DNA of 63,942 nt, filler included, from Collodictyon triciliatum (lineage: Eukaryota): assembly GCA_043381765.1 (NCBI GenBank). It is 4 parts of 4 records of this genome, joined end to end, with 100 filler letters (N's around TTAATTAATTAA, not from the genome) between each part and the next. Parts side by side here need not be neighbours in the genome. Positions count along the whole stretch, not along the records: positions 1 to 20,547 come from JBHJMP010001229.1; 3 more parts are not named here. One strand, given 5' to 3'. Both the position numbers and the translations under genes were made by a program. The first letter of the stretch is position 1; each line of letters opens with the position of its first letter. Under the pieces are notes generated by a model, which saw only the letters and a program-made list of their open reading frames with translations, was not told the origin of the DNA and did not search any database. Shown piece after piece: positions 1,491 through 58,547 of this stretch.

Positions 1491-3950
1491 ATGACAAACG
1501 ACACACCTGTTCCATTGCACCTGTTGGCCCAAAGCTTTGTGCACAACTTTTTCAACCTTCGCATCTTAATGCATTTCTGCAGTCACATACCCAGATACAA
1601 TATCATGCACAAACGTCTATGTGATACATGCATCAATAGCGATAGGCTCACAGCAAATGTGTCCATTCTAATCCTATTTTCATTTACGCACCTTCCACCA
1701 CTTCAGTTAGATTACTCTGTCAATGTAGAGACAGCATCCCTGCACGAGAGGTTTCACCTTATACTGGGATTAAAGTTACAGGAGCATTGTGACAACATCC
1801 TTGCCGAGGTAAATACAAAGGAAAAAGGAAAAGAGAGGAGAAAAAAAAAAAGGAAAAGGGTCATGTCGAATCATGGTTCTTTATCATAACTTAATATTAA
1901 TCTCGCTACGTCTTTTACAACCTAGCTTCACACAAACAAGTCCAAAGTCTGCCAACAGTACCTGTCTCAGCTAATTCTCCTGCAAAGAAACCATATCTTT
2001 CTGAGTCAATGGATCTCTCGGACACAGGAAACTTTGAGGGCAATCGGCAAAATTCAAATATGCCCATTTCGTAGAAGAAAGAAGCTATCCGTCATTCCTT
2101 TCGCATTCGGATACTTCAAATACAGGCAGGTTGTTCCTCTTGTTGCATCTGAAGGCCGAATTCATATGGAGCATCCTTGTGTGGCATTTCTCCACGGTAT
2201 AAAGCTACCCACGCAGATGTGTACTTTAACTGGCCTTGTATCAACCAGTATACCAGAGCAAAAGCGAAAGGTTTGTCGTATAATGAAAATGTTCAAGCCG
2301 ATACACGAGACTTCATTGTCCCATGCATCCTACCCATACGATTTTGCACAACATCCGGACTCTGGGGATTTCTTTGTCACAGACTTTGCAAAACATCATT
2401 TGCTCATTGTGTCATCAGACTATCAAGCAACCAAAGTGTTTGGCGAGAAAGGGTCGAGTCCAGGGCAGTTCTTGAACCCAACCGGTGTTGCATTTTCACC
2501 GAGAGGCATCCTAGCTGTAGTTGACCATGGAAACCACCGTGTTCAGCTCTTTGATACCCACCTGGCGTGTATTCATGCATTTGGCTCATTTGGAAACGGA
2601 CCCAATATGTTCATCCATCCTTCTCTTGTTGCGTACGACCGGTTAGGTCATCTATACGTCACAGATATACATACAAAGACTATCCAAAAGTTTGACGGCG
2701 ACGGAAACTTCAAGGAAATCATCCATCAAAACCACATCCGCTCTGCTGCAGAGAAGCCAGTTTACAGCATCACATTCAACTCAAAGACCGAATTTTATGC
2801 CTGGTGCCTGGATTCAAACTCGATACAGGTGTACAACCTTTCTGGTGCGCTCGTGAAGGACATTTCACTGGCGTTTGATGTTCCGGGAGGCTCTCTTATC
2901 ACACTCACATGCGGACCCATGGACACTGTTTTTCTATCTGACAATCAAAATCATGTCTGGCATTGCACATCAACCGGGGCTCTGATTGGCAAGCATCCAT
3001 TTTTAGGCCCATCAAAAGCACTAGTATCAGGGTTGGACAAATTGTACACCCTGTGCTCCAACACAAAATCTCTGATTTTTGGGAACTGGACTTGGGATGC
3101 AGAGAAGCAGAGCACCCATGACCAGTTCCTCGGGAGGCCAAAGAAGGTTGTTGGTGGAAATGGCTGCAGCCAAGGCCAGTTGAAGCGGCCAAGCTGCCTC
3201 TGCATTCACCCAAAGACAGGCGATGTTTATGTGACAAACACAGGCAACCACCGCATCGACGTTTTTTCACCGGACCTTGCATTCAAGGCATCGTTCAGCT
3301 GCTCGAAAGGCAAGTGCAGTGCGTTGTATCATCCTTTTGGTATCTTCATTTCTCCAGACGGCCAGACAATTGGAGTCACTGACTACGGCAACCATTGCGT
3401 GAAGCTCTTTGACGAATCCTTTAACCTGCGGCGCGTGATTGGGTCGAAAGGGGCGGATGCTGGGCAGTTTGAGCGTCCCTCGGGTGGGTGCTTTGATGGA
3501 CACAACAACTTTTACGTAGCAGACTCTGGCAACAGACGCGTGCAAAAGTTTACTGCGCTGGGCGAATTCCTTTGCATGTTTGGTACAGAGACGTGCAGCC
3601 GTGACCAAAAGAAAGAAGACATTTGCAGTGTCTATGTGGATAGAGACAACTGCGTTTCTGTGGTTGGATCTGGGTGCACGCGAATCCGCACATTCTGCGG
3701 GGACGGGCGTCACGTTGGGGATTTGAGAATCGAGCAAACTGGCTGCAGGAGCATCTGCTTCTTGTTTGAGGGAATCGATGGTGGCTATGCAATCTCTGAT
3801 GCGGCAAACAACCGGGTGATGTTTTATTCAAGGAGCTCTGGAGAAAAGCTGGGCGAGTATCCTCACGCGTGCCCATCGGGAGGCGCCTTCAATGCTGAGG
3901 GCGCGTTTTATTTGTTGGGTATGGATGACCACTCGCTATCTTTGATATAG
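1491..3950 (+). CDS. NHL-repeat protein with two NHL propeller blocks and a Cys/His-containing N-terminus (TRIM-NHL-like)
   Basis: NHL motifs FGEKGSSPGQFLNPTGVAF...VVDHGNHRVQLF, GSKGADAGQFERPSG...YVADSGNRRVQKF. The 638-aa ORF stays open upstream to an acceptor at 1925 and splices in phase 0 to the exon ending at 1808 (...HCDNILAE|LHTNKSK...). Start codon uncertain (1491 or 1569). Confidence 0.8.
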
Positions 3951-5986: not shown

Positions 5987-8900
5987 TTAACCGTCATCAT
6001 CTCCTTCCTCATCTTCGTCATCATCATCTTCATCATCTCCTTCACCATCTTCTTCCTCTCCTTCCTCTCCATCTTCATCATCTCCTTCACCATCTTCTTC
6101 CTCTCCTTCCTCTCCTTCTTCATCCTCTCCTTCTTCCTCTCCTTCTTCCTCTCCTTCTTCCTCTCCTTCTTCCTCTCCTTCTTCCTCTCCTTCTTCCTCT
6201 TCCTCTTCTTCATCTTCCTCTGCTTCGACGGCTTTTTGTCTCCATTCCTGAGCCTTCTCCTTGCTCATATCCACACCCCATCCATTCTCGTAGCACTTTG
6301 CCACCATTATAGCTTGAGGACCAGTAAAAGTTCCCTCTTCACAAAACTTGACAAAGTCTATATCATCCGACACCGCACCAAGAGAAAACAACAGTCTTTT
6401 GTTAAAATCGCTGAGTCCTTGAGTTTTCTGTAGCTTGATGCTTCCTCCTTCCAAGTATCGCAGTCCAAATATACGAACTGTTCTTGCACCGGGTAAAGAA
6501 ATGCCGCTACTGTCTGGAGCCAGCGAAGTCGTGCTTTGCTTTCGAGGCCTGCCCTCTTTCCCGTTCGCCGACTTTGTTGCCAAAGAGAGTTCCCAGACAC
6601 GCACGATGTCATCCACACCTGCAGAAGCAAGCCATTTCTCTCCCTTGGGCCCTGTAACATTGCTTAGCTTATTAACAGCGCCGTCATGGCCTTCAATTGT
6701 TCTAACCTGCGCTCCAGTGGCCAAATCCCAGACAAGAACCTTGCTGTCCTCGCTGCTGGAGGCCAACCATTTTTCTCCATTCGGTCCGTCAATACTACAC
6801 ACAGACTTGAGTTCTTTTGTGAGCCCCTCAATCGTTTTGACTAGAGAGCCATCTGATACATTCCAGATACGAATTGTTTTGTCAATGCTTCCAGAGGCCA
6901 GCCAGTTTTCGCCATTTGGCCCCTGGATGCTGCAGATGGACCTCACTTCGTCTGTGTGGCCCTCGAGAGTCTTCACATGCGTGTTTGTCGATAAGTCCCA
7001 AAGACGGATTGTAGTGTCGCTGCTTCCAGACGCCAGCCAGTTTTCTCCACTCGGCCCTTTGAGGGAACATATATCAAAAACTGTGCTCGTATGGCCTTCG
7101 AGACTTTTGACTTCACTGCAGGAGGCCAAGTCCCAAATGTAGATGGTTTTTTCTCCACCAGCAGACACCAGCCATTTTTCTCCACTTGGCCCTTGAGCAT
7201 CACACATAGTCCAAGCAGTGTGTGTATGAGTCTCAAGAGTTTTGACCTCTTTCCATGAACTCATTTCCCATATACGTATCGTTTTGTCGTCGCTACCAGA
7301 TGCAAGCCATTTCTCGCCATTCGGGCCCTCAATCCCGCACAGGCTCCATATTGTATCAGTGTGAGTATCCAAGGTAGCCAACTGCTTCCCACGCTCCAAA
7401 TCCCATATGCGAACACAATCATCATTTCCGCCAGATGCCAGCAATCTTTCTCCTTGTGGGCCTTGAATATCACAAAGAGCCCAGACAGATTCGTCTGAAT
7501 GCCCTTCATCCCGACCAATCAATTTTACAGAACTATAATCCCAGAGTTCTATTTCTCCACCCTCGCACCCAGTGGCCAACCATCTTTCTCCGTTAGGACC
7601 ATTTACGCTGCAGACACTGGAAATGACTTCATGATTGCTTTCCAAAACTTTAACCTGATTTCCCGTACTTAAATCCCAAATAATAAGTGTCTCGTCTTCA
7701 CTTGCAGATGCCAGCCACTTTTCTTGGTTAGGTCCTTGGAAGTTACATATAGAGTTAACCGTATCAGTGTGTCCTTTCATAAGCTTCACTTGACTGCTAG
7801 TGGCCACACTCCATATTCTAACAGTATTGTCGTCACTTCCAGAAATGATGTAATTATCCCCATCAATGCTCTCGGTACTGCATATGGAAGTTACCCAATC
7901 TGTATGTCCTTTCATATTTTTAACTTGAGTTCCAGAGGCTTTGTCCCAAACGCGTATTGATTTGTCGTAGCTCCCCGATGCAATCCAAGCTTCTCCGTTT
8001 GGCCCTTTGACATTACAAATACTGGTAACTTGCTCCGTGTGGCCTCTGAGTAATTTCTCTTGCTTACCGGTCGCTATATCCCAAATGCGAATAGTTTTGT
8101 CTTTTCCTCCGGAAATTAACCAGTTTTCTCCATTCGGTCCTTTTGTGCCAGCAACTGTTTTGACCCAGTCAGTGTGCCCCTCCAATGTCTTCAAACGATT
8201 ACCGGAGGCTAAATCCCATATCAGAATGTAAGTGTCCCTACTGCCAGACGCAAGCCACGTCTCTCCATTCGGCCCTTGAATATAACATGCACAAAGGACA
8301 GCATCTGAGTGGTCTTTTAAAACCTTGCTTTCTCTGCCCGTCGCTATATCCCAAACCCGAACGACTTTATCATCACTCGCAGAGATCAACCAGTTTTCTT
8401 GATTGGGACCGGATATGTTGCACATGCAATTGATGGTGTCTTCGTGATCCTCAAGGCTTTTGTAGGGAATTCCAAACTTCACATTCCTCAGAACTGCACC
8501 GTTGAATATCGCATGGCTTAAAACAGAGTTGGTAAAGTCTACACCGTCCAAGTTGCCGCCTGAGAAGTCGACTCCGTCAAGAATAGAGTTGCTGAGATTT
8601 GCATTTGGAATTCTAACCTTGGACAGGTCCATCCCACTAAAAGTGACATTCATGAAATTCAGCAATGTAATTGCATCAGAAGCTGCCCTTGACTTACTTT
8701 CGTCGCTCCTTGACAAGTACACAATCTCAAACAAATGAGAAATTATTTGCTCTCGATTCCATCTGCCTTCTTCCTTAAGATCAGGGATGGTTTCTGTTAT
8801 GAATTCTTGATATTTAGTAAACTCAATGGGCTCCTTAATCATTCCGATGATTTTGGAATGATATGATAGATATTCACAGCAGAACAAAGTCTTTGCGTGA

Positions 8901-11900
8901 ATCCATCCGAGCTTCTGTCCGGTATTTTGCATCATCTCGGTCCAGAAATCCATTCCTTCCTTATGGAGCTCTTTCTCAATAAAACTCCCGCCAATATGTT
9001 CGCAAGCATCCCATGTACCGACAAAGTCGTGGCCGTAAAGTTTACCAAACAGATGAATCAGATGCTTGTGTATTTCGATAATCAATTCGTGCTCATCCTT
9101 GTCGACAAACATTTTGGCCATGCCGATGCACTGAATGCTATCCTTCAGCGACGTTCTTGTCAGGGTTTCGTTACGGATTTGAAAGGCTTTTTGAATAAAG
9201 TCAATCGTTTGGGCGTTGCTACATTTAAGTGGAGAATCAACTTTAAGATTTCAATGTATTTTCCTTCTCTATTAGCTTTATTATCATAAATAGTTATAAA
9301 GAAAAGAAAAAGAAAAATATCGTGGAGATATAAATCAACATTTTTCACAAGAATGCTTATTTAAAAAAAATTAAAAATACTGCACAGGTATTATAGTTAA
9401 TAGATTCAATTTAACTCCGGATATACAGAAAATGAATATACCTTCCCAACTCAAAGTTTGCACGACCTACATTCTCAAGAGATTTTGCGTAGTCAGGATG
9501 GGCTTCCCCAAGAGTTCTTTTACGAATGTCTAATGTGACGGTATACGCAGACAAAGCTTTCCGGTATCTTTGATAAATAAAGATCCATTAATAGTCATCA
9601 ACATATGAATAAAGCATTTATTGCAGAAAAATCATAGCTTGACAAATGACAGATAAAATAAGATTCTTTAAGTGAAAACTGTTCGCACTCTTTCAAATCA
9701 TGATTGATATTGCCAATCATCTCATATCCATTGACCACATTGGGGTGATTTTCCCCAAGTTTTTCAACAAAGATCTTCACTGACTTATTGAGGCATGTGA
9801 GGGCTTCTGGTTTTCTGATTATTTTTTAAAATTACTTAGCCTCTGACTTTTTTAAATCGAATAAAGGGAAACTTAGACTATGGCTTCAAACCGAATGGTA
9901 AGAAAAACTAATTGAATGTAATTTAAGTGTTTCATTTTTGAAAAGAAAATGTTTTATTGATGATTCACCTTCCAGTCTCGATGTAAACGTTTGCTAGGTA
10001 TCCAAGCACAGAGGCAACTGATGGATGCTGGTCTCCGAATGATTGCTCAAGAATATTTCTCGCACGTTCGTATTCCGATATGCATTCATCATACCTGATA
10101 AAGTTTAGCATTGATAGACTCGCAATCATTCTTTGTAAGATTAGTTCTTTCCATCCTCCTCACTCCCCTCAAAATATGTGCAACAAAAGCTATTCCTTTA
10201 AAAAGTAAAAGAGACGAACGAAAAAATTTACCTTTTCTCAGCAAAATAGACATGCCCAAGATTCTGAAGTGAGGCGGACATTAATGGGTGATCATTTCCG
10301 ACTTTTTTTGATCGAATTTCCTTTGCCAGTTTATATTCTTTCAAAGCGAGTTCCATTCTTCAAAGTTGATTTCTGTTAGAATTTTTGGCCAAGGAGTTTC
10401 TTCGATTGTTACAGATTTATTATGTATGATGATAAAATTAGTATTGTGGCATTACTGATTTTCTAATAAATGTATGTCTCCAAGACGGTCATGTGACTGA
10501 GCTACGGACAAGTCGTGCTCCCCATATTTTTGCAAACGCAGTTCAAGTGACTTCTTAAATTCGTAAAGTGCTTCGCCTAACCTAAGGTAGTGTTTCATTA
10601 TAATTTTTATGATGGATGATGGATTATAATAATAATAATGATAATAATAAATAAATACAAGATTGAAATATTGCTGTTACTTGTTCTCGTTCATGTACAA
10701 AGATCCAATTTCTTGATGAAGAGACGATATCAGATCGATGTTCTCTTGTTCCCGAGATTCATTGATGTTCAAACACTTCAAAAGATAGGCCTTAGACTCT
10801 TCCCAACTGAAAAAAAAAACCTTAATATAGGAAAGGACACAATTTATTTTAACTAATTATTTATATTATAAGCAATAAAAAAAAATACTTTTGGAGATTC
10901 TTGTAAACACAACCAAGGGCGAAGTAGTCATCAACCTTGGACTCTGTATAATGTAGTGTTTCAGGTGCATATTTCTTTTTTAGGATAAAATATTTAAAAT
11001 AGATGATTGATGAATGTACAATATGGACATACCTTCTGATGGTCGTTTGCTGATTCTTTGTGTGACAGTGGAAAGTAAGAAAGAGTTTTCATACATCTCG
11101 AGAAAGAATCTAACCAGCAGATCACCAACTCTATTGGTTGACTGAGAAATTCATGTGTTAACGTGTATTATTATAATTATATTTATCTAACGCTGTCAGT
11201 AAATATTTTAAAATAGTTAAATGAAACTAAAAAAATAAAAATGCAACCTTAATGAAATGGGCGTAAACATCCTTGTAATTCGTGAGACCTTTATCATGTA
11301 TGGTTCTCCAGCAATTGACAAATTCATAACGATAGCGGCCTTCTAGCATCAGAATCACAACCTGAATTTTATTTTCTAATTTAGGATAAAAGGAGAAAAA
11401 AAACATCATAAATAATTTTTTTTAAAAAAAAAAAGCTGTTGCTTATAATTGTTTTTTTCATATCAGTCATCCTGAAAAAAATCTCATTACGTGCTCTTGC
11501 TTAAGGTATTCCACAAGCAAGTCATAGCTTTCTCCTCCCAGTAATTGATAGCAGATTTCGGCAGCCAGTTCCTCGTCAACTGCAGTGTCCCCAGAGTATT
11601 CACTGAAGAGCCACTCGCCCAGATGTTTCTTAGTCTCGACCAATGCTTTGTGCTCAGAAAGAAAGTACCTTTCCACGGTCTCTGCCAAAAGTTGATGGAA
11701 GTACATATATCTAGCGAAAAGTTAGGGGAAATTGTGCTTCAGTATGGACGAATATTCAAGTCATTCGACCATTCTATGAGTCCAATAAAAGGCAAAAGTT
11801 TATTCAAACCTTCCATTCCTCACGAACAAGGATTCAATCAGTGTAAAAAAGAACGATTTCCTTTTTTTAAAAAAAAAAAATAATGTCATTAGGCAACAGA

Positions 11901-14900
11901 ATTCAACGTAGGTATCTGATTGATAGATGATTTTTGTAAAAAAAAAAAAAAAAAAAAAAAAATAATAATAATTTGGAACTGAAATAGACAATACGAGCTT
12001 AATATATGCTTATACCACTCGGCGTGCAAGAATTTTTTTCCAATCATGTCCTCCATGTAAAGGTCTAAGTTGGCTTCGCTCAGTCCAATACGCGTGACAT
12101 ACAGTGTTTTCATGGATATATCAACCATAAGGGACCCTGGTTTGATAGTTTCAAATGTAAGTTGGTATGTAGTACTCAAGTCAAGAGTAGGATATGTTCC
12201 AGTGTTTAAGAAAAAAAAAAATTTACTGTGTATCGAGCCATACCATCTTTGTTGAACTTCTCCTGCCATCTCTTGATGATGAACTGATAAAGATCGATAA
12301 CGCCATCAGTTGATAAAAGACTGTTCAGTTCCTGATCAAGTTTCTCATATACCCCAAAGACTCTAATTTCGTCTAGGACTATTCGAAGGTACAGTGGGTG
12401 ACCTGAAAATTGGAAATAAAAATAACATAAGTAAGCGTCATTTGAACTTTGAAATAAATAAAACAAAAGTAAAAATAAAATAAATTTTTGAAGCTTAACA
12501 ATTGTGACACCTGTATCTTCGCAGTCAAATAGTATCATATTCATCTGCACTTCGCTTAAAGTCTTGTCGTAACGATAAAGAAATGCTTCGGTGCTTTCTT
12601 TGACCTCCTCGACGGTAAGTCTTAAAACAGGGATGGTCTCCAGGCCACATTCAATGGCCATCTGAAAAAAAAGAAAGATTACAGGTATATAAAGCTAATG
12701 ACAACCACATGATTTCAATCAATATCAACATTTAGATATAAATAGCTTACTTTACAAGATGAGTGAGTATCGATGGTGGAAACAACCAAAGCGACGTTTT
12801 TTGGTGCCTTTTTTGGCAGCCAAGTAAGAAGATGAGGCATTGGAGTCTCTTGAGAAGGGTGAATTTGGTTGATAGCATCAATAAGGAAAATGTATTTATC
12901 GTCTCTATTTTTAAACAAATGTTAGTAAAGGATTCGTTTTGAATATTATTTCATTCTCAGAATGTATGCTGATATGTGGCAACGTGCCCACCCACCCTTT
13001 ATTTTTCTGGATGAGATCAAAAAGGCCTTGAATCCCTTCTTTTGAGAATTCTGTGAGAAAATAAATGAGCATTTCATAGCTTCAGACATAGAATTGAGGT
13101 TTAAACATGATCTTCCCATTCTGTTGGATGGCTTATCTCGTGAAAGAAGTCGAATATACGAAACCTTTTTCTCCTCCATAGTCCACTGTAGAGGCATTTA
13201 TGTTACCCAAAACTAGCTTCCAGAAACGAATCGAGATGCTTTTTAAGTGGTAGAATTAGATTAATGGGTGCCGTTTTTATTTTCCTACCATTTTTGCAAT
13301 TAAGGAGTCGGCGCAGTTGGCACACTATTAATTAAACATATTCTGCGTTTACAAAACTATCTTGAAAAAAAAATACCTTTCAACATAGTTGCTAAGGTTT
13401 GTGCATCCAACGAAATGATAAGACAAGTTCAATCCTGGAATATTCATGCTTTCTAAATCTCTCACTGCAGCAGCCATTAATGAAGATTTTCCTATTCCCG
13501 ACTTTGCTGCTAGCACAGTGATATTCACGCCATCTTCTCCGAGCTGATTTAAAGCCTGCATTTCCAGCAAAACAAAACAAAAATCAACAAAGTATTCATT
13601 AAATTAAGCGTTTGTTCATATTTTTATGTGACATAGATATCGACCGTTCAGATTGAATATTGTTGGAATGATTACTTGGTCACATATGTTTTTGAGGAGT
13701 TCCTTGCGACCTCCAAAACCAGCAAGTCTATGCATTTTAAACTGGTGATGTGCCTGGTCTTCGGGGTCCCTGACCTAAAACAGTAAGAAACTGCTTCATC
13801 AATCTGTCTTTCAGTTAATCATAAATCCAAAAAGAAAAGGTGAATATATATATATCATTTTAAAACCTTCAAATTGGAGAAATCTTTCTTCATGGCGAAA
13901 GTAAGGTGATAGGTTATGAAATCAGAATATTCTTTTGGTCCTTGGTATACGACATGTCCAAACTTGGCTTTCACTTTTTCTTTAAGCTCGTTTTGGCTCT
14001 TGCGCTATTTTTCCAATTTTTTGGTATGAAACATTAATTCTTCGTTTCAAAATATCAGGTAAAATAGAGATAAAATAGACAAATTTATGAAAAGAACACA
14101 CAGCCAAGTATCAAGGCCACATACCGCTTCCTCGCTTTCAGATTGGAAGAGCTTCTTCTCTTCTTCACTGGCTGCATGCGAAACTGCATATTCTTCGTCG
14201 CGAAAGTAGAAAAAGGCACGACTGCAAGCTGGCTTATCAATTAATGCGGCAAATTGAATCTATTTGTTTTCAATTTAGTGAATGAAACAACTAGATTCAA
14301 TTTTCGTTACAAAAAAAAATGAATTCAAATGAGGTATTAAAAGAACCTCGTATTCGGTGACACTTAACCCAGGCATAGCATTTATGAAAGGGAAGCGCTT
14401 GTTTGTCTCTGTACGCCATTCTATCCAGATGTCACTAAGCTTTGCTTCAGGTTTCGTACGTCTCAATTCTTCGAGTCTCTCTGCCATATTGGCCTCCGTC
14501 TTGTTCTGGTCTGGAATCCATCCGTATCTAGCTCCGAGTGAACAAACAAAATAGGGGCATTTTTCAATCGAATCAAGACAACGGATAACAACCTATGAAA
14601 GAATTGTAAATTTAAAGGCGTGGTGGGAAAATATGATTTATTTAAGAAAAATATTAATTTGCAATTGCAATATTATGAATACAGTAGTGTACCCATCCTT
14701 CGTTGCTGTCTTTGGATGTTAACCCCCAACGAAGGTCTATGAAAACAAGCTCAAAGCCAAGCGACTTTGCCAATTTTTTTAATCTAGTAGTTACATAATG
14801 ATGAAAATTTAGGTATAAAGAGCTTATTTAAGGTCGTATATATTGAATTTAGTGATGCAAAATTAGTTCCCACTCGACTGCACCGGTTTTGAAGAATTCA

Positions 14901-16397
14901 TCACGTTCCTTTTGCATGTCACGAAATGTCGAGGATAAAAAAACTCTGATAACCCTTTCATCAAAGATAACCATATCTAAGGGTTTCGGTGTAGTGTATC
15001 TTTGAGGTGCCGGCGCCCATTTTTTGAGCCTTTTTTCTTTCATGGTTTCGATATTGCTATTTAGCTACCCCGATATAACAGGAAAAGACCACAAAAGCGT
15101 TAATTCTTTGCGGATATTTGTTGTTTAAAGTATATGTTGTTTTGATATATATTTAAATCGTAAACAGGATTTAGTGAGCTTCAATATGCGTCTACTATGG
15201 ATATTCATTTCGTGTGGCATTTTTCCCAAATAAAAAAGGAAGAAGACTCACTTTATCCATGAGAATGCATGAGCGAACCAAAACAATAGATCCCTTTTCT
15301 TCCGCATCTAGGTCTAGATAATTACAGTTAATTTACATTATGAGGGATGGTTTCAGAATTATTGGTATAAATAGCATGACACAGGAGAATGCAACTTTAA
15401 TGGAATATCAACCTTCAAATGGAAATGGGATTGCACTCCTTTGGAAAATCTTCTTGGCTTCTTCATACCTGGCTTGGGACATGTGCTAGTAGAAAAAAAA
15501 ATTCATTATTAAAGTGTAGGTGTGTGCTTTCGATTATTGTGTGTCATTGAAATGTTAAAGATACCCCGAACTTCCCAAGATGGTTGATTGTCTTTTCCAT
15601 GAGAAGCCATAGTAAAGGCTGAATGAGATCTGATAGCAAACAATAATATTAAATTTTTCTATATTTATTTAAGAGGAGAGGAATATTTCAAATAAGTATA
15701 TCGTCAAACTTGCTCATATTGCAACTTAAGTGCGTCATGTATATATAACAGTCAAGATTACTCTGAAAAGCATCCTCTTGAGTTTCCGAGGGATTTTTGT
15801 CGGATCTATGTTTATTGAACCAGCCATGCACCATTTTCTGGTTCTCCTCTACCAAAGATGACTCGACGATTGGTTGATCTCTAATATGTGATTTTCGATA
15901 TTTAAAATGGAGAAATTATACACATTAAATATAACAAATTTTTCTTTACATTCCGTGATATCAATATATACTTAAATTTGAGTATATGTTGATAGCAGTC
16001 CGAATAAAGGTTTAATTTTCAGTCATACTTGTAAACATCTGTTATGTATACAGAGTATAAAAGTATCATACTATAATACAACCATTCAATATAATATTAC
16101 GCGAAAAGGCGAGAGTGGTAGTCCTTAAAGCTTTGACCGGTGGTAATGTCGATTAGCATTATCAGAAAAAAGCCGTCTTGGAAGTCATCCATGACATTCT
16201 TAGCGACCAAGTCAATCTTCCCAAGCTGGTAATTGACCCATTGCAGAAGGGCCTGCATTGAAAAAAAAAACTTTGATATTTCATATGGAGCAAAAGATGT
16301 TGTTTTGGCGTGTTGCAGTTCTGTGTATATGATATACAAATATTCATGATGCTGCGGGACGTACCTTGTCGACAGCACCTTCTGACTCAGAGCCCAT
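5987..16397 (-). CDS. Multi-exon NLR-like/STAND protein: CH domain - DUF4062 - NACHT/AAA-type P-loop NTPase - 6 TPR - pentapeptide repeats - 14 WD40 - Sel1-like repeat - acidic tail
   Basis: Spliced by eye. MGSESEGAVDK|ALLQWVNYQLG...DDFQDGFFLIMLI and LIQPLLWLL (CH); IRVFLSSTFRDMQKERD, IDLRWG, LGARYGWIP, SVTEYE (DUF4062 as in TEP1/NPHP3-like proteins); AAKSGIGKSSL (Walker A); YIFLIDAINQI (Walker B); GHPLYLRIVLDEIRVFG; six 42-aa TPR exons; phase-2 junction 9442/9218 leads in frame into the 1044-aa ORF. Confidence 0.85.
5993..6220 (-). repeat. Coding low-complexity repeat (EEEG/DE-rich acidic tail)
   Basis: Tandem 12-nt GAAGAAGGAGAG-type units encoding EEEGEEEG...DDEDDDDEDEEGDDDG. Confidence 0.9.
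15956..15997. repeat. Imperfect 42-bp palindrome in an intron of the NLR-like gene; near-copy of 20105-20146
   Basis: TGATATCAATATATACTTAAATTTGAGTATATGTTGATAGCA; 5 differences from the 20105 copy. Confidence 0.8.
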
Positions 16398-16776
16398 TCT
16401 CTAGTTGAAAAGAAAGGTGTTCTATCAGAGAGCTTTTACGTTTGATTATTAGACGTATAGCTTTATCCTCGTTCATTTTGCATCAAATGAAGGGGAATAG
16501 CAATATATTTTCCAGGGCAGAGGCATAATTAGCCGTCATTTTCGGCATGGTGTGAAAGGCATGGGACATTAAGGACTTTTGTGAGAAAAGGAAGAGTTTG
16601 AGGGGAATATGCATATACGTTTGTTTGCATCCCCGCCGATTAACCAACAAGTCACAACACACGATTCGATAAAAGTGACTCTGCGAGCGAATCGCTTGTT
16701 TTTTTTTTTTAATTTACTTTCTTCTACCAAGTCACTTTTCTTTGACTCCTATGCGATGTGATTCAATCACAATCTC

Positions 16777-17737: not shown

Positions 17738-19584
17738 TCGAGTTTATTTTGAGCGCTGTTAAAGTCCCTTGTTAAGAATACACTTTGTTTGCTTTCTGAG
17801 CGATTTCATTCTTTACATATGAGACATCTATACACCTTTTTTTTTTTTTTGAATTTCCTCTCAGTTTCATATATTCCAGTTCTTTTTCGCAGTTGCAACA
17901 CATCTTGGAGGTTCTAAATTCATCTGCACTTACTGTCTCAAAACGTTTAGATAGAATTTTTTCGTAATCCTCTTCCGATTGTTGCATAAAATGTTTCATC
18001 GGAGATTTTCTGCTCCAGTCTCCATACGCTAGTACAACATCCTCGCCAAATGTCTTTTCGATTCGGTTCATAAACAATTGTTCACTTCTTTTTGTATTAA
18101 CATACTGTCTCCATCTCATCTTTCGAAAAGTAACGTGTTCATAAAATCTGGAAAATTCTATCTGGTATCTTGATTTCATAGATACATATTTTCGAAATTT
18201 TTCATAATCGACGGTGCATGAATTATGTTTACTCAGTTCTGTCTCTAAATCGATTAAAGATACTCTTGATGCCTCAAACCGCTGATTCTCTTCAAAAGTC
18301 AGGGAACCAAAAGAAACAGCACTTTGTAAATCCGTTTCCATGCATATCCCTGAAGCATTGTGCTTTTCTTTTTTCTCGAGCAAGAGTATGTTGTGATTTT
18401 TAAGAGATTTGCTATCATGTCTTCTTTGGTGTGCTGTGTAGCGTGATTTCTTACCTGTCTCATTCGCCATGTAAACCAAATTAAACTTGCCTGCGTTCAC
18501 TGACTATATTTTTTTTCGCTAATAAAGATAAATGCTCCTCGAAAAGTTTATCTATATAAACATATTCCTAGGTTTTTTTTTTGATTAAATTGAATTTTGA
18601 ATTTGAAATACCTTTCTTTTCAAACAATAAAGACACCGCCAAGCCGTCTGTTTGTATCATGTATTTAAAATTGTAGTCTTTTGATGAAAGACCCTCTTCT
18701 TCATTTCAAAGAAATTATCCCATAGGGTCTCTTTGCATCCTGATATATTCTTCATTAATAATATTTTTCCCGTTGATAATAACATAACAATCAAACATGC
18801 AGTGTCTAGAGTAATATAACATGGTATATTGTTAGTTCTTATGGGGATTGGTTGAAACAGTTTGGTTCCAATGCCCCAAAAAATGTGATACATGTAAATC
18901 AGACACGGAATGTGCTTATTCAGATTGACTTTGACGTCATATTCATACCATTTACAATATCGCTGGGAATGATACGATTCAGATGCGTTGTAGCCCATTC
19001 TTTATATTGTTCCGGTATTTCGAGTTTCTTGAAGATGGCTTTTTTTAACTTTTGTAACTATGCCTTTTAAACAGCTTCCGTATTATTCTCATCTTTAGGA
19101 ACTGTTTGATTTATAAAGCGCAGTGACCTCTTTACAAAATGTATCTTAATGTTATTATGATAAGCTGTTAGCATTTGCTTCGCCAAGTACGGTAATACAT
19201 GAGACAGTCTAACCAAGGAAAACGTTCTTCTCGGGACAAAGGGAATCGGAAATCATTGAGATAAAAAGTCATCATGTCGATACTCATTTCTGGATGTTTT
19301 TAATCTTGTGGGTCTATCTTGTGAAACTACGACTGTCTTTAAAACATACAAAAAATATTTCATCGATTGTTGGGACCTGTTGTGATTTCAATATGTAACA
19401 TCTTGCAAACAGAAAAGTGTCGGTAACCAAGTTATGACACAATAAAACCGTATCATCGATTTTTTCATAGCCATTCGCATTCTTTACAATCGACTTTAGA
19501 GATGTTTTCTTTTCTTCATCTGAAAGTCTTTTCTTTATTTTTTCCATACAAAACTCTTAAGTTTTCAATTTTAATAAAACTCGA
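17738..19584 (-). mobile_element. Decayed Fanzor1 (eukaryotic TnpB-like RNA-guided nuclease) element; intronless and frameshifted
   Basis: Fanzor1-type motifs in order across frames from the ATG at 19547: KTSLKSI; LPYLAKQMLTAYHNNIKIHFVKR; LFQPIPIRTNNIPCYITLDT; IQTDGLAVSLLF; degenerate RuvC-I (NAGKFNLVYM in place of DPGK); FRKMRWRQYVNTKRSEQLFMNRIEKTFG; VLAYGDWS; DEFRTSKMCCNC; CLICKE*; TRDFNSAQN. Several frameshifts and a stop. Confidence 0.85.
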
Positions 19585-19600
19585 GCCAATTAGTATCAAT

Positions 19601-19602
<2 letters not shown>

Positions 19603-19697
<95 letters not shown>
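19603..19697. repeat. (AAT)n microsatellite
   Basis: Directly visible. Confidence 0.95.
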
Positions 19698-19698
<1 letters not shown>

Positions 19699-20104
19699 TA
19701 TAAAAAGCACCTGCATAAAATCAATTCATGCAAAATTAAGCATCTACCGAGACTCTCAAAATGTGCGCATTGTGGCAAACAAACATACTAAGTTTTTTAT
19801 ATAAGTGATTTGAGACAAAACGCTGAGAGCCGATTCGGCGAGTTCGAAAGGACAGCCACATAGCCATTGCAACTGAAAGTCAACATATCGGCCCCAAACA
19901 ACATGATTACTGCCGCAAGTGTGGGTAGTATGCTTTTGTGAAATGCATGTGTGGTGGCAGGTTTTTTGGGTTGGGTTCTGTCTAGGCCAACGCAAGGACT
20001 TGTTTGTATTTTTTGAATTTTAATGTTACACAAATGGAAAAAATAATTGATTATATGAATAGAATGAGGTTATTAAGTATTTTAACATAATTATATATAC
20101 TAAT

Positions 20105-20547: not shown

Positions 20548-20647
20548 NNNNNNNNNNNNNNNNNNNNNNNNNNNNNNNNNNNNNNNNNNNNTTAATTAAT
20601 TAANNNNNNNNNNNNNNNNNNNNNNNNNNNNNNNNNNNNNNNNNNNN
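20548..20647. other. Artificial contig spacer (N44-TTAATTAATTAA-N44)
   Basis: Identical 100-bp structure occurs three times; the 12-mer gives stops in all six frames. Confidence 0.97.
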
Positions 20648-25300: not shown

Positions 25301-28300
25301 CACGGAATGAAATATGAACACAGGTGTCAACATGGTGTCTATCAGTATCGATGTGGACTCCAACCATCACATCAAATCCTTGGAGATTGTATGAATCCAT
25401 TTTAATTTTATTTTTCTTTAATTTTCTTTACCATCACACAAAATTCGCACAATCTTTGTTAATTTGTGCAATTGCCAATAAGTAGGCATATTATATTCGA
25501 TAATTCGTAGATTGTATTCATTATATATTCATTTCATTTTCTCTATCGCACTAGCAACAACAAGGAGACGTCGTGCGTCCACATTATCTTAAACTTGCAT
25601 TCTTTGAAGAGGAAAATGGGATGGGTAATTTTTTTGAACACAACACCATGGAGGGATTCCCCTTGTTAAGTTACTCGTGTTCTTCAAAATATATGATAAG
25701 TTATTTAAATTTTGAATTTTTTTTTTTAAAATTAACAGTCCATGAGAGAGACGTGATGCCGATCAAGTTTGCCAAGCTTTCAATAACAATCGACCATCTG
25801 CATGGAAAAATGATGCCTTCATTTATATTCCCCAATTATGAAGACACGGGTATAATCAACTCAAATGATTTATGTCATCAAAATAATGACATAGACCCTA
25901 TCGTACAACATATTTACTAAATATACTTGTGTCTTAATGCGGGTTCTTATAGTTTATAATTGAGTTTTGTATATGATAATTACTTTATGTTTATCAGGTA
26001 TGTTTTCTGTCATAATGGACCCGATATCCCTTGCATACACACTGAAAAACTGCGACAAGATAACCCACAGGCAGACAAAATATATGATCTTCTCTATTCT
26101 CCACGATTTGAGCGGGAATGTAAAGAACCTCAATTTTTCCTTTTGATTTATTTAAGATGCAGTATTTGACCTTGGGTCGCTACAATTAACGCTTTATCTT
26201 AAAGTCGGATTTTATGTATACTTTACTTGATTTAACTCTGAAATGGATTGTAGTCTGATCCAAGCAACCTCGATGATTACGAAGCTGAGAATCGTATGCA
26301 AGAAGTAACTACAAGATCCGGTTCCATAGGCCACAGACAAAAAGTGGAATATGGCTCAAACCCTAGTGATGTATCGCAAGCGAGCATTATCAGAGTTGCT
26401 GTTGAGTCTTATATTGAGCTCCCATCTCCTGCTCTCTCATCGCATGTGCCAACCTCATTAAGACAAGAAGATCAATCGCATATATCCAGTGAAGTGCAAG
26501 CACATGGTATGCAATAGGAGATGGATGGGTTTTTTTTTATTTTCGTCGCCCAATATACGGATATATGTACGTATGTTTATATAGATTTTACGTTAATGTA
26601 TAATGGCTAAACTTTACAAAAATTTCGTCCAAATTTGTAGGGGTTATAGTTGGTACGATGAGGGGAAGAAATCATGCGGATGCTGTGAATCATGAGCCTT
26701 GTGTTTCGAAAAGTTGCTCTGAAACTGATTCAGACTCAGACAGAGGCCGTAATTCGGGCAGCGAAGCGGATAACAGGCCAGCCAATAAACTAGTCCGAAC
26801 AGATGGTGCATACCAACCGAAATCATGGGGTGAGGATAGCACCGATAACCAAACAAGCGATAGTGGAACATACATAAGCTCTGATTTCGAGACAGACGAA
26901 CTTTCTGGAAATGAATTTGAAACCAAAAATCGTGATGAGGAAGGCACTCAAGACGAAGGCGCCGGTTCACATAATTCTACGATGTTTGAGGGTTCAGATG
27001 ACAGCTCTTCGAGCTTTGGAGCTGAATCTATGGATGATGTCGCACTCTATTCGAGTGAAGCCCATATGAGTGAAGGAAAACACGTCACAAGAAGCTTCGA
27101 TGATTTGGTTCCGACTCTGAACTTGGAACGACTGGATACATATATTAAACACGAACCCCAGCCAAACGTGAGCCAGAAACCCATCGTTATCCCTGAAAAT
27201 GGAGAAGGAAAAAGAAGAGGACTGGTTCGTTTAGCAAGTGCTGTCTATAGTAAGAATGAGGATGTGTATCATAAATCTGTTGAATACGGGGAAACATTTA
27301 TTCAGCCTCATAATCGCCAAAATGCAGACCCAAATACGACTACAGTTATCGCTGCAGAAAATACTCTGGAATCGGCGAAGCAATACAATCAACCAAAAGC
27401 TGCACATCAATCTCCACAAATATCTACTAAAAGCCTTGGTATGATGAACTCAACAGATTATCCCGAGATAGTAGAAAAAGGCCATTTGAAAGAGCACCTG
27501 AGCTGGGCAAAAATCAATGTTGACAGTATTTCGTATGTCAGAAACTTCGAGTTGTCGCATCCATTCAACATCTCGCTACTACCTGAATCAAGTTCAGTGT
27601 GGGTAGAGGGATTAAAAGAGCATCTTGCAATTTTACAAGATGGGGTACACCGAGGCATCATGCGCGTTGTAGATGAACAGACCAAGAAGTTGTCCGAATT
27701 GGATGAGAGTTGGATATATCGTGACGGATATACAACTCCTTTACATGTTGCTGCGACTATGAATTTTCTAGAGGTCGCTCAGCATCTTCAAAGTATGGGG
27801 GCCTCTTTGCTTCTAAGGGACCGTGGAAATCAAAAACATACGGAAAACAAGATATGTAACAGACTGCAACAGAGTGAATGTGTTTATCAAGAACCATATC
27901 AATTACCAATAAAAGGAAATAAACCGTTTCACAAAGACGCTATCGTGCCAATCGCAGATTATTCAGCGGTAGATTTACCATTTCTACACCCCACAAAAGG
28001 CACACTACATAGTATGAATGCATCTAGCATCCATGGACATAGAGGTAATCACCAGCAAACACATGACCAAACTTTGCAGGGGCAATGGACAGCAGCCCCT
28101 GCTCTCGAAAAATTGGGCGGGTTTACTCCAATACACATGGCGGCACATGAGGGGCATACCGTTTGGCTTACCCAGATATGCCAGTCCTTGACTCAGGCAG
28201 GAACTCATGACGTTATATTTGCAACAAGTTCTGCCGGATGGAGAGCTATTCATCTCGCAGCATTCATGGGTAGAACATCGACAGTCAGATATCTACTTGA

Positions 28301-30323
28301 GCTTGAGTCCCTGGCATATGAGATGCAACACAAGTTTCACCCAATTCATACGCAAACAAACTCAGGGCGTTCAAAAAAAGAGGCAGACTACAAACAAAAG
28401 CCTAGTCACCGAGATGCTCATTTCCTTGAAAATACACAAAACTCTAAAAGCGTCGATGCATATGTGGAGAAAGATATCGGGCCTCGTGGATGGACGCCTC
28501 TGCTCCTGGCGAGCATGGCTGGCCAACTGGAGACTGTGCAAGCCATTCTAGACTTTGGAGTGGATACACATGGATACGAATGGATAACAAAACAGACTCT
28601 GATTCAAGCGCATGGCAAGAATGCTTTGGAATGGGCTGCATTTCATGGATGGGTCGACATAGTGCAGACATTCATCGAATATAGATGGCCAATATCAAGC
28701 AGAGTGCGAGGAAAGACGTATACACATCCTCTACTTTGGGCTTGTCGTGGGGGTCGTCTGGAAGTTGTTAAATCACTGTTGAGGGCTGGTGCAGACCCGC
28801 TTTCACCTGCTCCAGATGATGGTGGACATATGCTTATACATGGCCTTATTTCAGCAGCGATAAATGCGTCGGTTTCTCAATTACGTGCCCAGTGGAGTCA
28901 ACCGTCCCAAGGAATGCTTCAACCCCTAAGCGTAAAATAAATAACTCTTGCAGATCTCGTTGTTTTTTCTTTTTCAATATACAAATGTTTTGTTTGTGAA
29001 CTCATCTCACTTGAATGGTTTTTAGGTCGTGGCTAATGAAGCAAATTCTCTATTGTCCTCCGTATGTCACGAGCTCCATCAACTAGCGTGCTCATCGCCT
29101 ATAAAATATGCAAAGTGTCTCGAGGCTCTGAATGCTACAGATAGATATGGATGGACTCCCCTTCATTGGGCAGCCCGTGGGGGTTATTCAACCCCTGAGG
29201 CAATTAAAGTTCTCCTCCGGCTTGGTGTGGAGACAGATCCAAAAGATGCAGTAGGATGGACCCCGCTTATGGTTTTATTGGCTAGCTTTCTGAATCCTGG
29301 CATGCTGCAACAAGGAAACCATGAAGATAGATACGAAAAAGAAGACGCATTCCTAGAAGAGTATTCTTCATTGTAATTTGATGCACGCATTCTTTTTTGT
29401 TAAGCTAACCACTGCTAATATGAATCTCATCACCCAATAGGGCTTCTTTCAAAACAAATGTAGATAGATTCGACGTGGTTGGTCAGAAGCAGCAACCCAA
29501 ATCTCGTTGGGAAATCAATGATGTTGTGCGGCAAGCTCTTGTGCCTGAAGTCATCGCGGTGATAGAGGAACTTCTTCGGGCCGGCGCCAATCCAAACAGC
29601 ACTTCTGGCTATGGCCTCAATCCATTGGACATTGTGAAACAATCTGCGATTGCCGGGTCACCAAGGAGTGTTTGGCAGCCCATTACAGCTGTTTTACTTC
29701 GATCTGGGGCAAACAGGCACCATACCCGGTCATTCATCGTGGGTGAAGAAAACCAAAGTAGAACAAGCACAATAAGGCAAACAAATTCGACTGCAGAACA
29801 TGGCACAGCTTTGTCCAAAGTTGTACAAGAACAGATATCGATGAATAATTCTTTATTGTCTCCGCATCGTGTGCTGCCAGAAACTCAGTACAGCAGTCAA
29901 AGTCGCTCGTATGCACCATCTGCAACCACAGAAAACTTGCCGTTCTTTTCAGGGAAGAAAGGAAAAGAGTTTCATAGCGCAAGTATTCCTTGGGTGTCTA
30001 GCTTTGCAACGTCTGCTTCTGTTGCACCCACGGTGCCCAAAGTAGACTTCGATTGGGGACATCGGCATGTAGGAACGCTGGCACAGGTATCCACAAATGA
30101 GGGATATGGGCTGAACAGGAGCTGGTCTTATTCATCCACAAACCCTCTGACAGGCCAAAGGTCTTTATCATCTGAATCAAATCCGCAACGAATTCGAGAT
30201 TTTTATTTGAACACTTCGGCAAATAAAAGTCCTAGCGAATCAAAAGTTTCATTCGGCCGGCCTCGCTCAGGAGATTTTCAATACGCTACCATCCGACAAC
30301 CAGCCTCAAAATTCGGTAAATAA
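22392..30323 (+). CDS. Inactive M1 aminopeptidase N (actinobacterial PepN-like) fused to ankyrin repeats; ~19 exons, roughly 1,850 aa
   Basis: PepN motifs ANLSFAEGQSR, YYTDFK|PFDAYGLFPCFDQPD, APNDWIVVGN, FPFEKLDIVLVP, WWDLWLNQ, AK|GAAV, WWECWVYTEGVN, VRPHYLKL, FPNYEDTGY. Ankyrin motifs GYTTPLHVAA, GFTPIHMAA, GWTPLLLAS, GWTPLHWAA. Splice phases are consistent throughout if an 11-nt exon (26205-26215) is included. Confidence 0.75.
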
Positions 30324-37807: not shown

Positions 37808-37907
37808 NNNNNNNNNNNNNNNNNNNNNNNNNNNNNNNNNNNNNNNNNNNNTTAATTAATTAANNNNNNNNNNNNNNNNNNNNNNNNNNNNNNNNNNNNN
37901 NNNNNNN
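37808..37907. other. Artificial contig spacer
   Basis: N44-TTAATTAATTAA-N44. Confidence 0.97.
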
Positions 37908-46674: not shown

Positions 46675-48781
46675 TTATTCGGCTACGTTTGCTTCCTTCT
46701 CTGGTATATTTTGCCTCCAAACAAATTCCTCCTGTTGCAGGCAGTGTGTAAGGATAAATTAATTACAATAATCAAAAAGGTAGAAACATAGACCAGAAAA
46801 AAAAAAAAGAAAGGAAAACTGTTTGTCGGAAACTGTAGATTCGGGTGCGCAGCTTACCACATATCCGCTTATCTCGCAAGACTTGCTGCAAGAGTATATC
46901 ACTACCGTACCCCAGTCAAGCATTTTCTCAGGATTTTGTTCTCCCTTTTGAAGGAAGTACAACAGTTGTGGGAGAATCTGAAACTCAAACTGCCGTGGAC
47001 TGTGGCATCGCTGACATTCTGGGACGTCCTTCTGGTCGATGCAATCGTTTGCACAAACCCATGACGGGCCAGCGTCTTTAAATCGACCATACCTGCGCAG
47101 CAGATTCAACTTTTTGTTTCAGTGGCATGTATACATATATAGCTGAGAGTCATAGAAAAAAAAAAGGGCTACTTATTTTTTCCTTGGCTTTTTCCTGTAA
47201 ACTTTTTATATATTTATTTTTCTGAGGTAAAGCACAAATTCAATGGTGGCTGCATAAAGGAACATAGCATTTCCATTCCAATAATATATACAATACCTAA
47301 TACATTGTTCCGGGTTCGCAGAAATGAGCTTTTGGAAGCGAGCAAATACTTTGTCCTTTGTGCTTTCACCCATCCGCGCTGCAGTCTCCTCCAATTCCCT
47401 TTCCTCCTCCTCGGTCATCTGTGGTGTTGATTCACTGTAGCTCTGCTGCAACTCATCCTCAACAACACTAGTATGTGTGCGCATGATAGAAAGCGGCTCC
47501 TCGGGTTCTGTCAGAATTTCAAATTGTCTGAACAGAAACGGATTATGTGCTATTTCTATTGATTGAGATTGTCCATGAGTTTGTGTCTGTGTACAGGAAG
47601 CTTTGTGTCCATTAGCCCAATGAAAGCGTTGGTGTTCTGCGCTGCAGTATCGAGTGGATTTGCATCGCCCGCACAAGAATGTTGCTTTGCAACCGCATAT
47701 GGGACACAAGTGAACACCTACGAGGATATGAGTGACATGTCTTCAAAGCAGCAAGGTCAAGAAAATGCATAAGTCCGGGAAAAAAATCCTATTATAATTG
47801 AAAAAGGGCATATGTATTACTGTGAGCCTTTTGAATGGGCACTGTCAAATCTTCTGGATTGGTTTCGGATGTCGAATCGATAGGTTTGTCGGGATAATAT
47901 GGGTTCAAAAGGGGCAGTTGCGACCGATAAGCACGAAAACTGTAGCGAAGAGGAGTATGCGATTTAAAAATTGTTGTATAATAGCAATAAATATGGATTA
48001 TTGCAAAATTGATTGTCTGAGGAATATTTTAAAAAAATTAACAAAACAAAACAAAACAAAACAAAACAAAACAAAACAAAACAAAACAAAACAAAACAAA
48101 ACAAAACAAAACAAAACAAAACAAAACAAAACAAAAAGCAATCTAATTATGTAAAGGTAAACCAATACGAATAGTAAATTGTATAATTTGGATATATTGT
48201 GCTTTTTATCTTTACCCAGAAGAATCGATATTGCATTTTTCATCCTTGCAACAAAAGATAAAAATGGAACGGTGGAATGAATATGCAAACTCTTCAAAGG
48301 GAGCGTATAGCTGCTCACGATTCGCAAAGAACAAATTTAAACATTATATGAGTAAAAGTATCTGAAAAGGTTTGAGTGGAAAGGTAACAAATAAATAAAA
48401 TCATAACTATACATAATGAAATGTGCATTCATTCGATTTTCAAAACAATCACATCGCAGACACATACTTGTAGAAGGAAAGACATCGGCTTCGTGCATTT
48501 CTGACATTTTAGAGAATCGGACGAAGGTAGATTGATGGGGTCGAGCCACGCCTGATATCAAAGGAATTGGGAGACAGAAAAGGAAAGAAAAAAAGAAAAA
48601 AAGAAAAAAAGAAAAAAAGAAAAAAAGAAAAAAGAAAAAGAAGAAAAAGAAAAGAAAAAAAAGAAAAAAAAGAAAAAAAAGAAAAAAAGAAAAAAAGAAA
48701 AAAAGAAAAAAGAAAAAAGAAAAAAGAAAAAAAGAAAAAAGAAAAGAAAAGAAAAGAAAAGAAAAGAAAAGAAAAGAAAAG

Positions 48782-58447: not shown

Positions 58448-58547
58448 NNNNNNNNNNNNNNNNNNNNNNNNNNNNNNNNNNNNNNNNNNNNTTAATTAAT
58501 TAANNNNNNNNNNNNNNNNNNNNNNNNNNNNNNNNNNNNNNNNNNNN
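58448..58547. other. Artificial contig spacer
   Basis: N44-TTAATTAATTAA-N44. Confidence 0.97.

Follow-up and report, generated by a model that had tools for sequence, protein, structure and literature searches.

Are the modular repeat exons of a receptor-like gene a device for isoform diversity, or are they the fossil of an exon duplication? This question is raised by a locus in a 63,942-nt stretch of Collodictyon triciliatum DNA (assembly GCA_043381765.1; four genomic parts joined end to end, hereafter the window, 63.9 kb), in which six consecutive exons of a predicted STAND-type gene, each exactly 126 nt long, encode tetratricopeptide repeats (TPRs). An initial annotation of the locus had proposed that these exons form a combinatorial system of receptor diversification, a reading that we now regard as improbable. 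Our analysis gives the better chance to a quieter history: the six exons are likely to be the modular core of an NLR-like STAND TPR arm, which was tandem-duplicated and then became frozen and constitutively spliced. The evidence comes from the geometry of the exons, from the conservation of the array in a relative of the gene, from isoform open reading frames (ORFs) of the related protist Diphylleia rotans, and from a search for traces of exon shuffling in the window.

Geometry of the TPR exons

The six TPR exons lie on the minus strand and are given below in transcript order. P0130 is the closest relative of the gene product and is described in the next section.

10681..10806, minus strand: TPR exon 1 (E18), 126 nt, phase 2-2; matches Pfam TPR_8 only (E 0.017)
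10456..10581, minus strand: TPR exon 2 (E19), 126 nt, phase 2-2; TPR_12 at E 7.6e-4; best partner P0130 unit 2
10232..10357, minus strand: TPR exon 3 (E20), 126 nt, phase 2-2; TPR_12 at E 2.5e-5; best partner P0130 unit 3 (49%)
9969..10094, minus strand: TPR exon 4 (E21), 126 nt, phase 2-2; TPR_12 at E 6.3e-8
9689..9814, minus strand: TPR exon 5 (E22), 126 nt, phase 2-2; TPR_12 at E 7.2e-4; best partner P0130 unit 5
9442..9567, minus strand: TPR exon 6 (E23), 126 nt, phase 2-2; TPR_12 at E 2.6e-5; best partner P0130 unit 6 (56%)

As the initial annotation had described, all six segments lie between an AG and a GT and consist of 1 nt, 41 codons and 2 nt. Each is open in this one frame only, which implies a phase-2 intron on either side of every TPR exon; the split codons at the five junctions between TPR exons encode K, Q, R, R and E. 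The assignment of one 42-amino-acid (aa) TPR to each exon was also borne out by Pfam scans, which were run exon by exon: five exons match TPR_12 and exon 1 weakly matches TPR_8. The peptide that had been quoted as an example is that of TPR exon 4. The 42-aa period, together with the TPR_12 match of five of the six exons (E 6e-8 to 8e-4), identifies the repeats as TPRs of the TPR_12, or kinesin-light-chain, type. The five matches extend from profile positions 19-21 through 57-59 of 77, and each exon presumably comprises helix B of one repeat, a linker and helix A of the next.

Segments with such borders are in themselves common. Open 126-nt stretches between AG and GT occur 36 times on the minus strand and 42 times on the plus strand of the window; only the six described here are TPR-like (E ≤ 4e-20 with a profile built from the six themselves, the next match being at E 1.8). 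The six are consecutive, colinear and in one register, and are separated by five introns of 98-154 nt, with a GC content of 0.38-0.44 in the exons versus 0.20-0.34 in these introns. The earlier statement that most TPR exons are missing from the ORF track is half right, because stop-to-stop ORFs of at least 60 aa cover exons 2, 4 and 5 and miss the other three. Finally, it follows arithmetically from the symmetric 126-nt, phase 2-2 geometry that any subset of the TPR exons can be removed without a change of frame, as had been claimed. This frame neutrality of skipping or duplication is a latent property of the layout and not a demonstrated mechanism of diversification.

Conservation of the array in Diphylleia rotans

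When the best DUF4062 exon of the gene was used as the query of a sensitive search, 21 proteins were returned at E ≤ 1e-3, and seven of the ten clusters that were looked up are EukProt transcriptome ORFs of D. rotans. The best real relative, P0130 (2619 aa, transcript-derived), is 67% identical over the DUF4062 exon and has the same domain order as the window gene, its six TPR_12 stretches being succeeded by 14 of WD40; its N-terminus contains 347 extra residues without a match in the window. Two further proteins, P0138 and P0134, combine DUF4062, NPHP3_N/AAA_16/nSTAND1 and TPR_12, and P0138 matches NPHP3_N at E 1.2e-6 as well as TPR_NPHP3. Paralogues, the lack of which the initial annotation had counted among the signs against its reading, do exist, at least in D. 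rotans, the nearest sequenced relative, where several DUF4062-STAND-TPR paralogues differ in their unit counts. TPR exon 4 had no match at E ≤ 1e-3 among longer proteins of up to 2000 aa, a size range that leaves the full-length relatives (2083-2619 aa) outside.

The peptide spliced from the exon that precedes the array (E17) into the terminal exon (E24) aligns with P0130 over 366 residues with a single internal gap, of one residue, inside unit 1. No gap falls on any of the seven junctions of the TPR region, and because P0130 is derived from a transcript, this provides independent support for the splice model. When both proteins were cut into 41-aa units in the exon register, the best partner of each of P0130 units 2-7 was the window unit of the same number (six of six, with a tie at unit 4), and window units 2, 3, 5, 6 and 7 reciprocated (five of six). 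Compared with one another, the TPR units of the window gene share only 10-32% of their amino acids and 29-48% of their nucleotides. Conservation of position combined with low identity within the gene indicates that the number and order of the units predate the split of the window gene and P0130, and that no unit is a recent duplicate. The conserved number and order of units between these two genes speak against the active combinatorial system of the initial annotation.

We propose that the array most likely originated by tandem duplication of one exon-plus-intron unit, an event that would account for both the identical lengths and the identical phase-2 boundaries. The array would then have become frozen, its units diverging strongly while keeping their number and order relative to the D. 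rotans counterpart, and most likely all exons are joined by constitutive splicing, giving a single solenoid.

Isoform ORFs of D. rotans and the question of alternative splicing

The D. rotans proteins offer a view of transcript forms, because clusters at 90% identity contain several Trinity isoform ORFs each; we examined 18 ORFs in five multi-member clusters, which we treat as genes. In the gene DN6427_c0_g2, three ORFs (P0167, P0163 and P0164) are identical to the 988-aa form until they end at residues 783, 825 and 867, respectively, positions that correspond to three successive unit borders in the 42-aa register, and a fourth form, P0140, diverges at residue 866, in the split codon. The short form P0134 of DN4896_c0_g1 ends at boundary 885, and the form P0135 of DN6178_c0_g1 diverges at boundary 843. 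Five of the six isoform breakpoints thus lie exactly on a unit boundary, where each would fall by chance in 1 of 42 cases. The D. rotans boundary is the same as that in the window, located after G/x-[K/R/E] and before [Y/F]xxA, and is common to at least three D. rotans paralogues and the window gene. Since breakpoints fall on unit boundaries in three paralogues, the exon design is family-wide; the breakpoints fit phase-2 introns at every unit, and also fit intron retention.

Clean internal deletions of 42 aa or a multiple thereof were found in none of the 18 isoform ORFs. Apparent internal gaps in P0135, P0152 and P0156 proved to be alignment artefacts of divergent tails and were discarded. 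These results bear directly on exon skipping, whereby the symmetric TPR exons would be spliced in varying sets to yield different receptor isoforms. The uniform geometry, in which each subset of the six exons is frame-neutral, is what such a system would need, and the profile coordinates suggest that the exon boundaries lie between helices A and B, so that an alternating A-B solenoid would survive the loss of an exon. Brown algae offer possible models: alternative splicing of their NB-ARC-TPR genes is reportedly the subject of Teng et al. 2023 (Plant J), going by its title, and brown-algal leucine-rich-repeat (LRR) exons of the same design yield several splice variants, according to the available text of the report (PMC11378527). 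However, in addition to the complete lack of clean deletions in the five clusters, the donors and acceptors of the TPR introns are neither distinct from nor weaker than the other splice sites of the gene, and the array introns contain no repeated or complementary elements able to steer exon choice, only short AT-rich matches. Moreover, the units are distinct and positionally conserved over a deep divergence, as if each of them were needed. We therefore consider exon skipping quite unlikely.

The truncated D. rotans forms suggest another possibility, namely that retention of array introns stops translation and produces a ladder of graded NIR-NACHT-(TPR)n proteins without the WD40 arm; by analogy with truncated plant NLR isoforms, these might serve as regulatory or decoy forms. 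In the window gene, introns I18-I21 (the first four of the five between TPR exons) would, if retained, place a stop immediately behind the split codon, their phase-2 donors being GTAA or GTGA, and the position of the D. rotans breakpoints agrees with this. However, a stop after a phase-2 GTRA donor is a trivial outcome of the donor consensus, and Trinity assemblies routinely include unspliced pre-mRNA, the ORFs of which are indistinguishable from those of genuine truncated forms. We judge a functional ladder of this kind very unlikely.

Possible traces of shuffling and turnover

If the array had been shuffled recently, its surroundings would be a natural place to look for remnants. Orphan or inactivated TPR exons are absent from the 63.9-kb window: a six-frame profile search on both strands found nothing beyond the array better than E 1.8, and tblastn found no TPR match below E 0.03 outside it. 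No Rfam family reached its gathering score in the window; a MIR815 match in intron 3 was far below threshold (24 vs 63 bits) and was taken as chance.

Several observations weigh against an old and fixed array. Constitutive splicing is an assumption on our part. Window unit 4 is slightly closer to a paralogue unit than to its P0130 counterpart (0.39 vs 0.34), and for window unit 1 no partner in the corresponding position stands out (0.20 on the diagonal). Identity to P0130 is 61% (462/753) from DUF4062 through the helical region, 39% (99/252) in the TPR units, 39% in the next 250 residues and 46% in the WD40 part; the TPR region thus evolves faster than the N-terminal part, as expected of a diversifying sensor. 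Units of the same protein resemble one another more closely in the short D. rotans paralogues (identity maxima of 0.49-0.56), and their closest partners in another paralogue are displaced, as for P0151 unit 3 with P0153 unit 5, which points to some unit turnover in the family. As to the origin of the layout, parallel gain of introns may be an alternative to tandem duplication, bacterial DUF4062-TPR genes having the same repeats without introns.

Turnover in the paralogues raises the possibility of shuffling in the germline, in which uniform exons would permit unequal crossing-over and exchange of units among paralogues, a process inferred for Ectocarpus, while the present gene remained stable. 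The differing unit counts of the D. rotans paralogues, the resemblance and displacement of units in the short ones (P0151 and P0153 among them) and the shared unit boundaries are all consistent with this. Nevertheless, even the closest units are only about 50% identical, and any exchange must hence be old, while the order of units is conserved between the window gene and P0130. Judging from the sequences, unit turnover in the D. rotans paralogue family is possible, but it would be old; for germline shuffling as an explanation of the uniform exons, we see only a small chance.

Taken together, the active combinatorial diversification put forward in the initial annotation is not upheld, given the diverged units, the lack of pseudo-exons and intron repeats, the conserved order and the lack of an exon-skipped ORF in D. 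rotans. That annotation had also named findings that would instead indicate a simple ancient tandem exon duplication (a single constitutive isoform, no paralogues and an invariant exon order), and here the outcome is mixed: paralogues are present in D. rotans, while the order is invariant relative to P0130 and the D. rotans isoforms are truncated and not skipped. The array in the window gene is conserved and probably constitutive.

Gene model and domain organization

The gene model was guided by P0130, using ungapped tblastn blocks and then the best-fitting GT/AG pair at each junction. Exons E1-E17 rest on this guide, and the start ATG at 15043 is inferred. A gene model obtained with a codon-usage dynamic programme was dropped, as it recovered TPR exons 1, 2 and 4, skipped exon 3 and misplaced two donors. 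The resulting gene and its main parts, apart from the TPR exons, are as follows.

5987..15043, minus strand: complete gene as predicted; 24 exons, introns GT-AG throughout, 2083-aa ORF with a single terminal stop
14125..15043, minus strand: E1-E4, DUF4062/NIR domain; two exon ORFs match Pfam DUF4062 (E 2.6e-4 and 9.7e-6); SVTEYE at the end of E3
11033..13555, minus strand: E7-E16, NACHT-type STAND NTPase and helical region; Walker A GIGKSS in E7, Walker B IFLIDA in E9
10889..10943, minus strand: E17, helix A of the first TPR; 55 nt, ending with 2 nt (phase 2)
5990..9218, minus strand: E24, terminal exon; starts with 1 nt, 1087-aa ORF, stop codon at 5987-5989

The order of domains in the predicted protein is DUF4062/NIR (TIR-like NADase), NACHT-type P-loop, TPR, pentapeptide repeats, about 12-14 WD40 repeats and an acidic tail. 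The DUF4062-STAND backbone assigned by the initial annotation is supported both by the exon-wise Pfam scans and by the domain matches of the homologues. An N-terminal DUF4062 is present, although only the match at E 9.7e-6 passes the curated cut-off (26.1 vs 24.7 bits); the homologues score E 3.4e-11 and 2.4e-10. The exon-wise matches of the NTPase are weak (NACHT E 0.006, NPHP3_N 0.011, nSTAND1 0.022, NB-ARC 0.3), and the Walker motifs followed by TPR_12 and WD40 show a P-loop STAND NTPase with a repeat arm.

The terminal exon E24 encodes, in order, a seventh, degenerate TPR-like unit, a helical linker, pentapeptide repeats, at least 12 WD40 repeats (Pfam E 1.8e-99 in 12 stretches) and the acidic tail. 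With tgtag|C at 9218 as its acceptor, phase 2 is maintained and the sole junction gap relative to P0130 disappears. Residues 1-230 of E24 matched only bacterial pentapeptide-repeat proteins among the longer proteins (up to 2000 aa), and E24 gave generic WD40 matches of 26-40% identity with proteins of similar length. The six TPR exons are thus surrounded by seven phase-2 introns in a row, whereas the other 16 introns of the gene are of mixed phases and its other internal exons measure 51-246 nt. A second symmetric run is formed by E3-E6 (14004-14592, minus strand), with 246, 135, 138 and 99 nt, all of phase 0-0; these exons are not repeats of one another.

The N-terminal domain of the protein has gained a putative function from recent work. 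According to the available parts of two preprints (bioRxiv 10.64898/2026.09.04.749371 and 10.64898/2026.05.01.722283), DUF4062 is a TIR-like NADase, termed NIR, that acts as an effector in bacterial defence systems, Avs among them, and is active in human TEP1, and it is N-terminal in most eukaryotic NLR-like proteins that carry it. The SVTEYE motif of the window protein is paired, in an alignment that is weak (E 0.21), with SVTEME of the TEP1 domain chain PDB 11gz_A. In our alignment A1, T79 and E82 do not vary, and the motif holds two Glu residues, either of which is a candidate for the catalytic Glu and counterpart of TEP1 E1008. By analogy with Avs, NLR and Apaf-1-type proteins, the predicted protein, with its N-terminal DUF4062/NIR TIR-like NADase, NACHT-type NTPase switch and C-terminal TPR, pentapeptide and WD40 regions, might work as follows: the TPR/WD40 arm would hold the NTPase inactive and bind a ligand, whereupon oligomerization would switch on the NADase.

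Three environmental ORFs of 73-85 aa (P0131, P0132 and P0137) are 48-72% identical to exon E3 (14347-14592, minus strand), and P0131 has the same 40-residue DUF4062 insertion as the window protein. All three continue beyond the ...TEYE|GT end that they share with this exon and enter sequence resembling an intron, which indicates that relatives with the same intron position occur in environmental assemblies.

Neighbouring features in the window

Several other features were noted in the window, the first two of them upstream of the STAND gene.

17772-18503, minus strand: 243-aa ORF ending in a CxxC-type motif, without a Pfam match
16100-16435, minus strand: ORF with a weak calponin-homology match (E 2e-4, below the curated cut-off), upstream of the predicted STAND start
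1926-3950, plus strand: long ORF encoding an NHL-repeat protein (E 1e-28)
26604-28940, plus strand: long ORF encoding an ankyrin-repeat protein (E 1.5e-27)
47206-47742, minus strand: MYND and PDCD2_C fragment

In a protein atlas, the 243-aa ORF is closest (scores 0.94-0.97) to eukaryotic (Zoopagomycota, Mucoromycota) and giant-virus clusters, partly with Cas12f1-like_TNB, and on this likeness it may be the remnant of a Fanzor/TnpB-like transposon nuclease, about 2.7 kb upstream of the STAND gene. The ORF at 16100-16435 may be a separate gene or an N-terminal extension, P0130 having 347 more residues at this end. Trinucleotide and low-complexity tracts are present at many sites, such as an ATT/AAT run at 19594-19700 that reads as poly-Asn or poly-Ile, and the GC content is uneven along the window (0.27 to 0.53 per 2 kb). 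The stretches at 20548-20647, 37808-37907 and 58448-58547, each made up of two 44-N runs around 12 bases, look like filler between the joined parts and not like gaps of the assembly. Of eight sequencing runs listed for the window, X1 and X2, of uncertain kind, contain 0.39 and 0.32 of the sampled words and the freshwater and aquatic metagenome and metatranscriptome runs 0.05-0.12; no conclusion, on habitat or otherwise, is drawn from them.

Comparison with known systems

The closest precedent is found in brown algae, and it is closer than the initial annotation had stated, since the exons are of the same 126-nt/42-aa type. As far as the available text of Zambounis et al. 2012 goes (PMC3341825), 13 of 24 Ectocarpus NB-ARC-TPR genes carry a TPR arm built of 42-aa exons (124 exons of 126 nt), and the genes form a multigene family of candidate intracellular immune receptors. 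In this family, introns harbour inactivated TPR exons, some exons have been duplicated locally, and exon order is hardly conserved at all. Both systems place a one-repeat-per-126-nt-exon TPR arm behind a STAND NTPase; this likeness, which lies in exon length and repeat, may reflect common origin or convergence. The differences are considerable. The NTPase is NB-ARC in Ectocarpus and NACHT/NPHP3_N-like here (NB-ARC E 0.3, single-exon scans being a weak test), and the window gene adds an N-terminal DUF4062/NIR domain and a pentapeptide and WD40 arm. In contrast to Ectocarpus, pseudo-exons, local duplications and scrambled order were not found at the window locus, where the highest identity between units of the gene is 32%, and the host, judged by best hits, appears to be a diphyllatean-like freshwater protist and not a stramenopile.

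A second brown-algal system, the LRR-ROCO genes, has 72-bp exons of one repeat each, all in phase 2, and alternative transcripts that combine different exon sets, as described in the available text (PMC11378527). It shares with the window gene the uniform exon length, one repeat per exon and phase 2, and differs in its LRR repeats, its ROC-COR GTPase switch and its documented alternative splicing and shuffling. A limited literature search brought up no description of such TPR exons in organisms other than brown algae; apart from the Ectocarpus study, it gave only unrelated papers on TPR-NTRK fusions.

In domain content, the window gene resembles NWD1, NWD2, TEP1, NPHP3 and TTC41, which, according to the partial sources available, have an N-terminal DUF4062 and a NACHT-type NTPase followed by TPR and/or WD40 repeats; the TEP1 domain also shares the S-V-T-E-x-E motif. 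Unlike these proteins, the predicted product of the window gene unites all three repeat types, TPR, pentapeptide and WD40, in a single chain, and as far as tested it is not the orthologue of any named animal protein. Bacterial DUF4062-(STAND)-TPR defence proteins (Avs2-NIR and Vulcan) contain the same effector domain with TPR repeats. Among 80 metagenome loci fetched with alignment A1 as query, TPR-unit matches were present in 8, each inside a single ORF of 205-1652 aa, and exon-type TPR arrays in none; another query of metagenome contigs for related loci found none. One of the fetched loci (L031, 9725-14680, plus strand) encodes a bacterial-type single 1652-aa ORF with a DUF4062 match and 18 TPR-unit matches, an intron-free NIR-TPR counterpart. 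As judged from these sequences, the exon-per-repeat layout is a eukaryotic overlay on a bacterial-type architecture.

There is a slim chance that a diphyllatean-type NIR-STAND family exploits its 126-nt exons after all, by skipping or by a truncation ladder, either convergently with brown algae or by ancient inheritance. If this were true, such an isoform system would be a counterpart to the NB-ARC-TPR system known from brown algae, near the base of the eukaryote tree. The locus makes it possible to ask whether modular repeat exons are used for isoform diversity or are the fossil of exon duplication, and whether phase and register are common to the brown-algal layout and the protist one. The layout itself, a STAND arm with one TPR per 126-nt exon, is not new and was known from Ectocarpus; what is new is that it occurs in a remote protist lineage from which little has been sampled, and that it does so on a NIR-NACHT backbone, the DUF4062/NIR domain of which was shown to be an NADase immune effector only in preprints of 2026.

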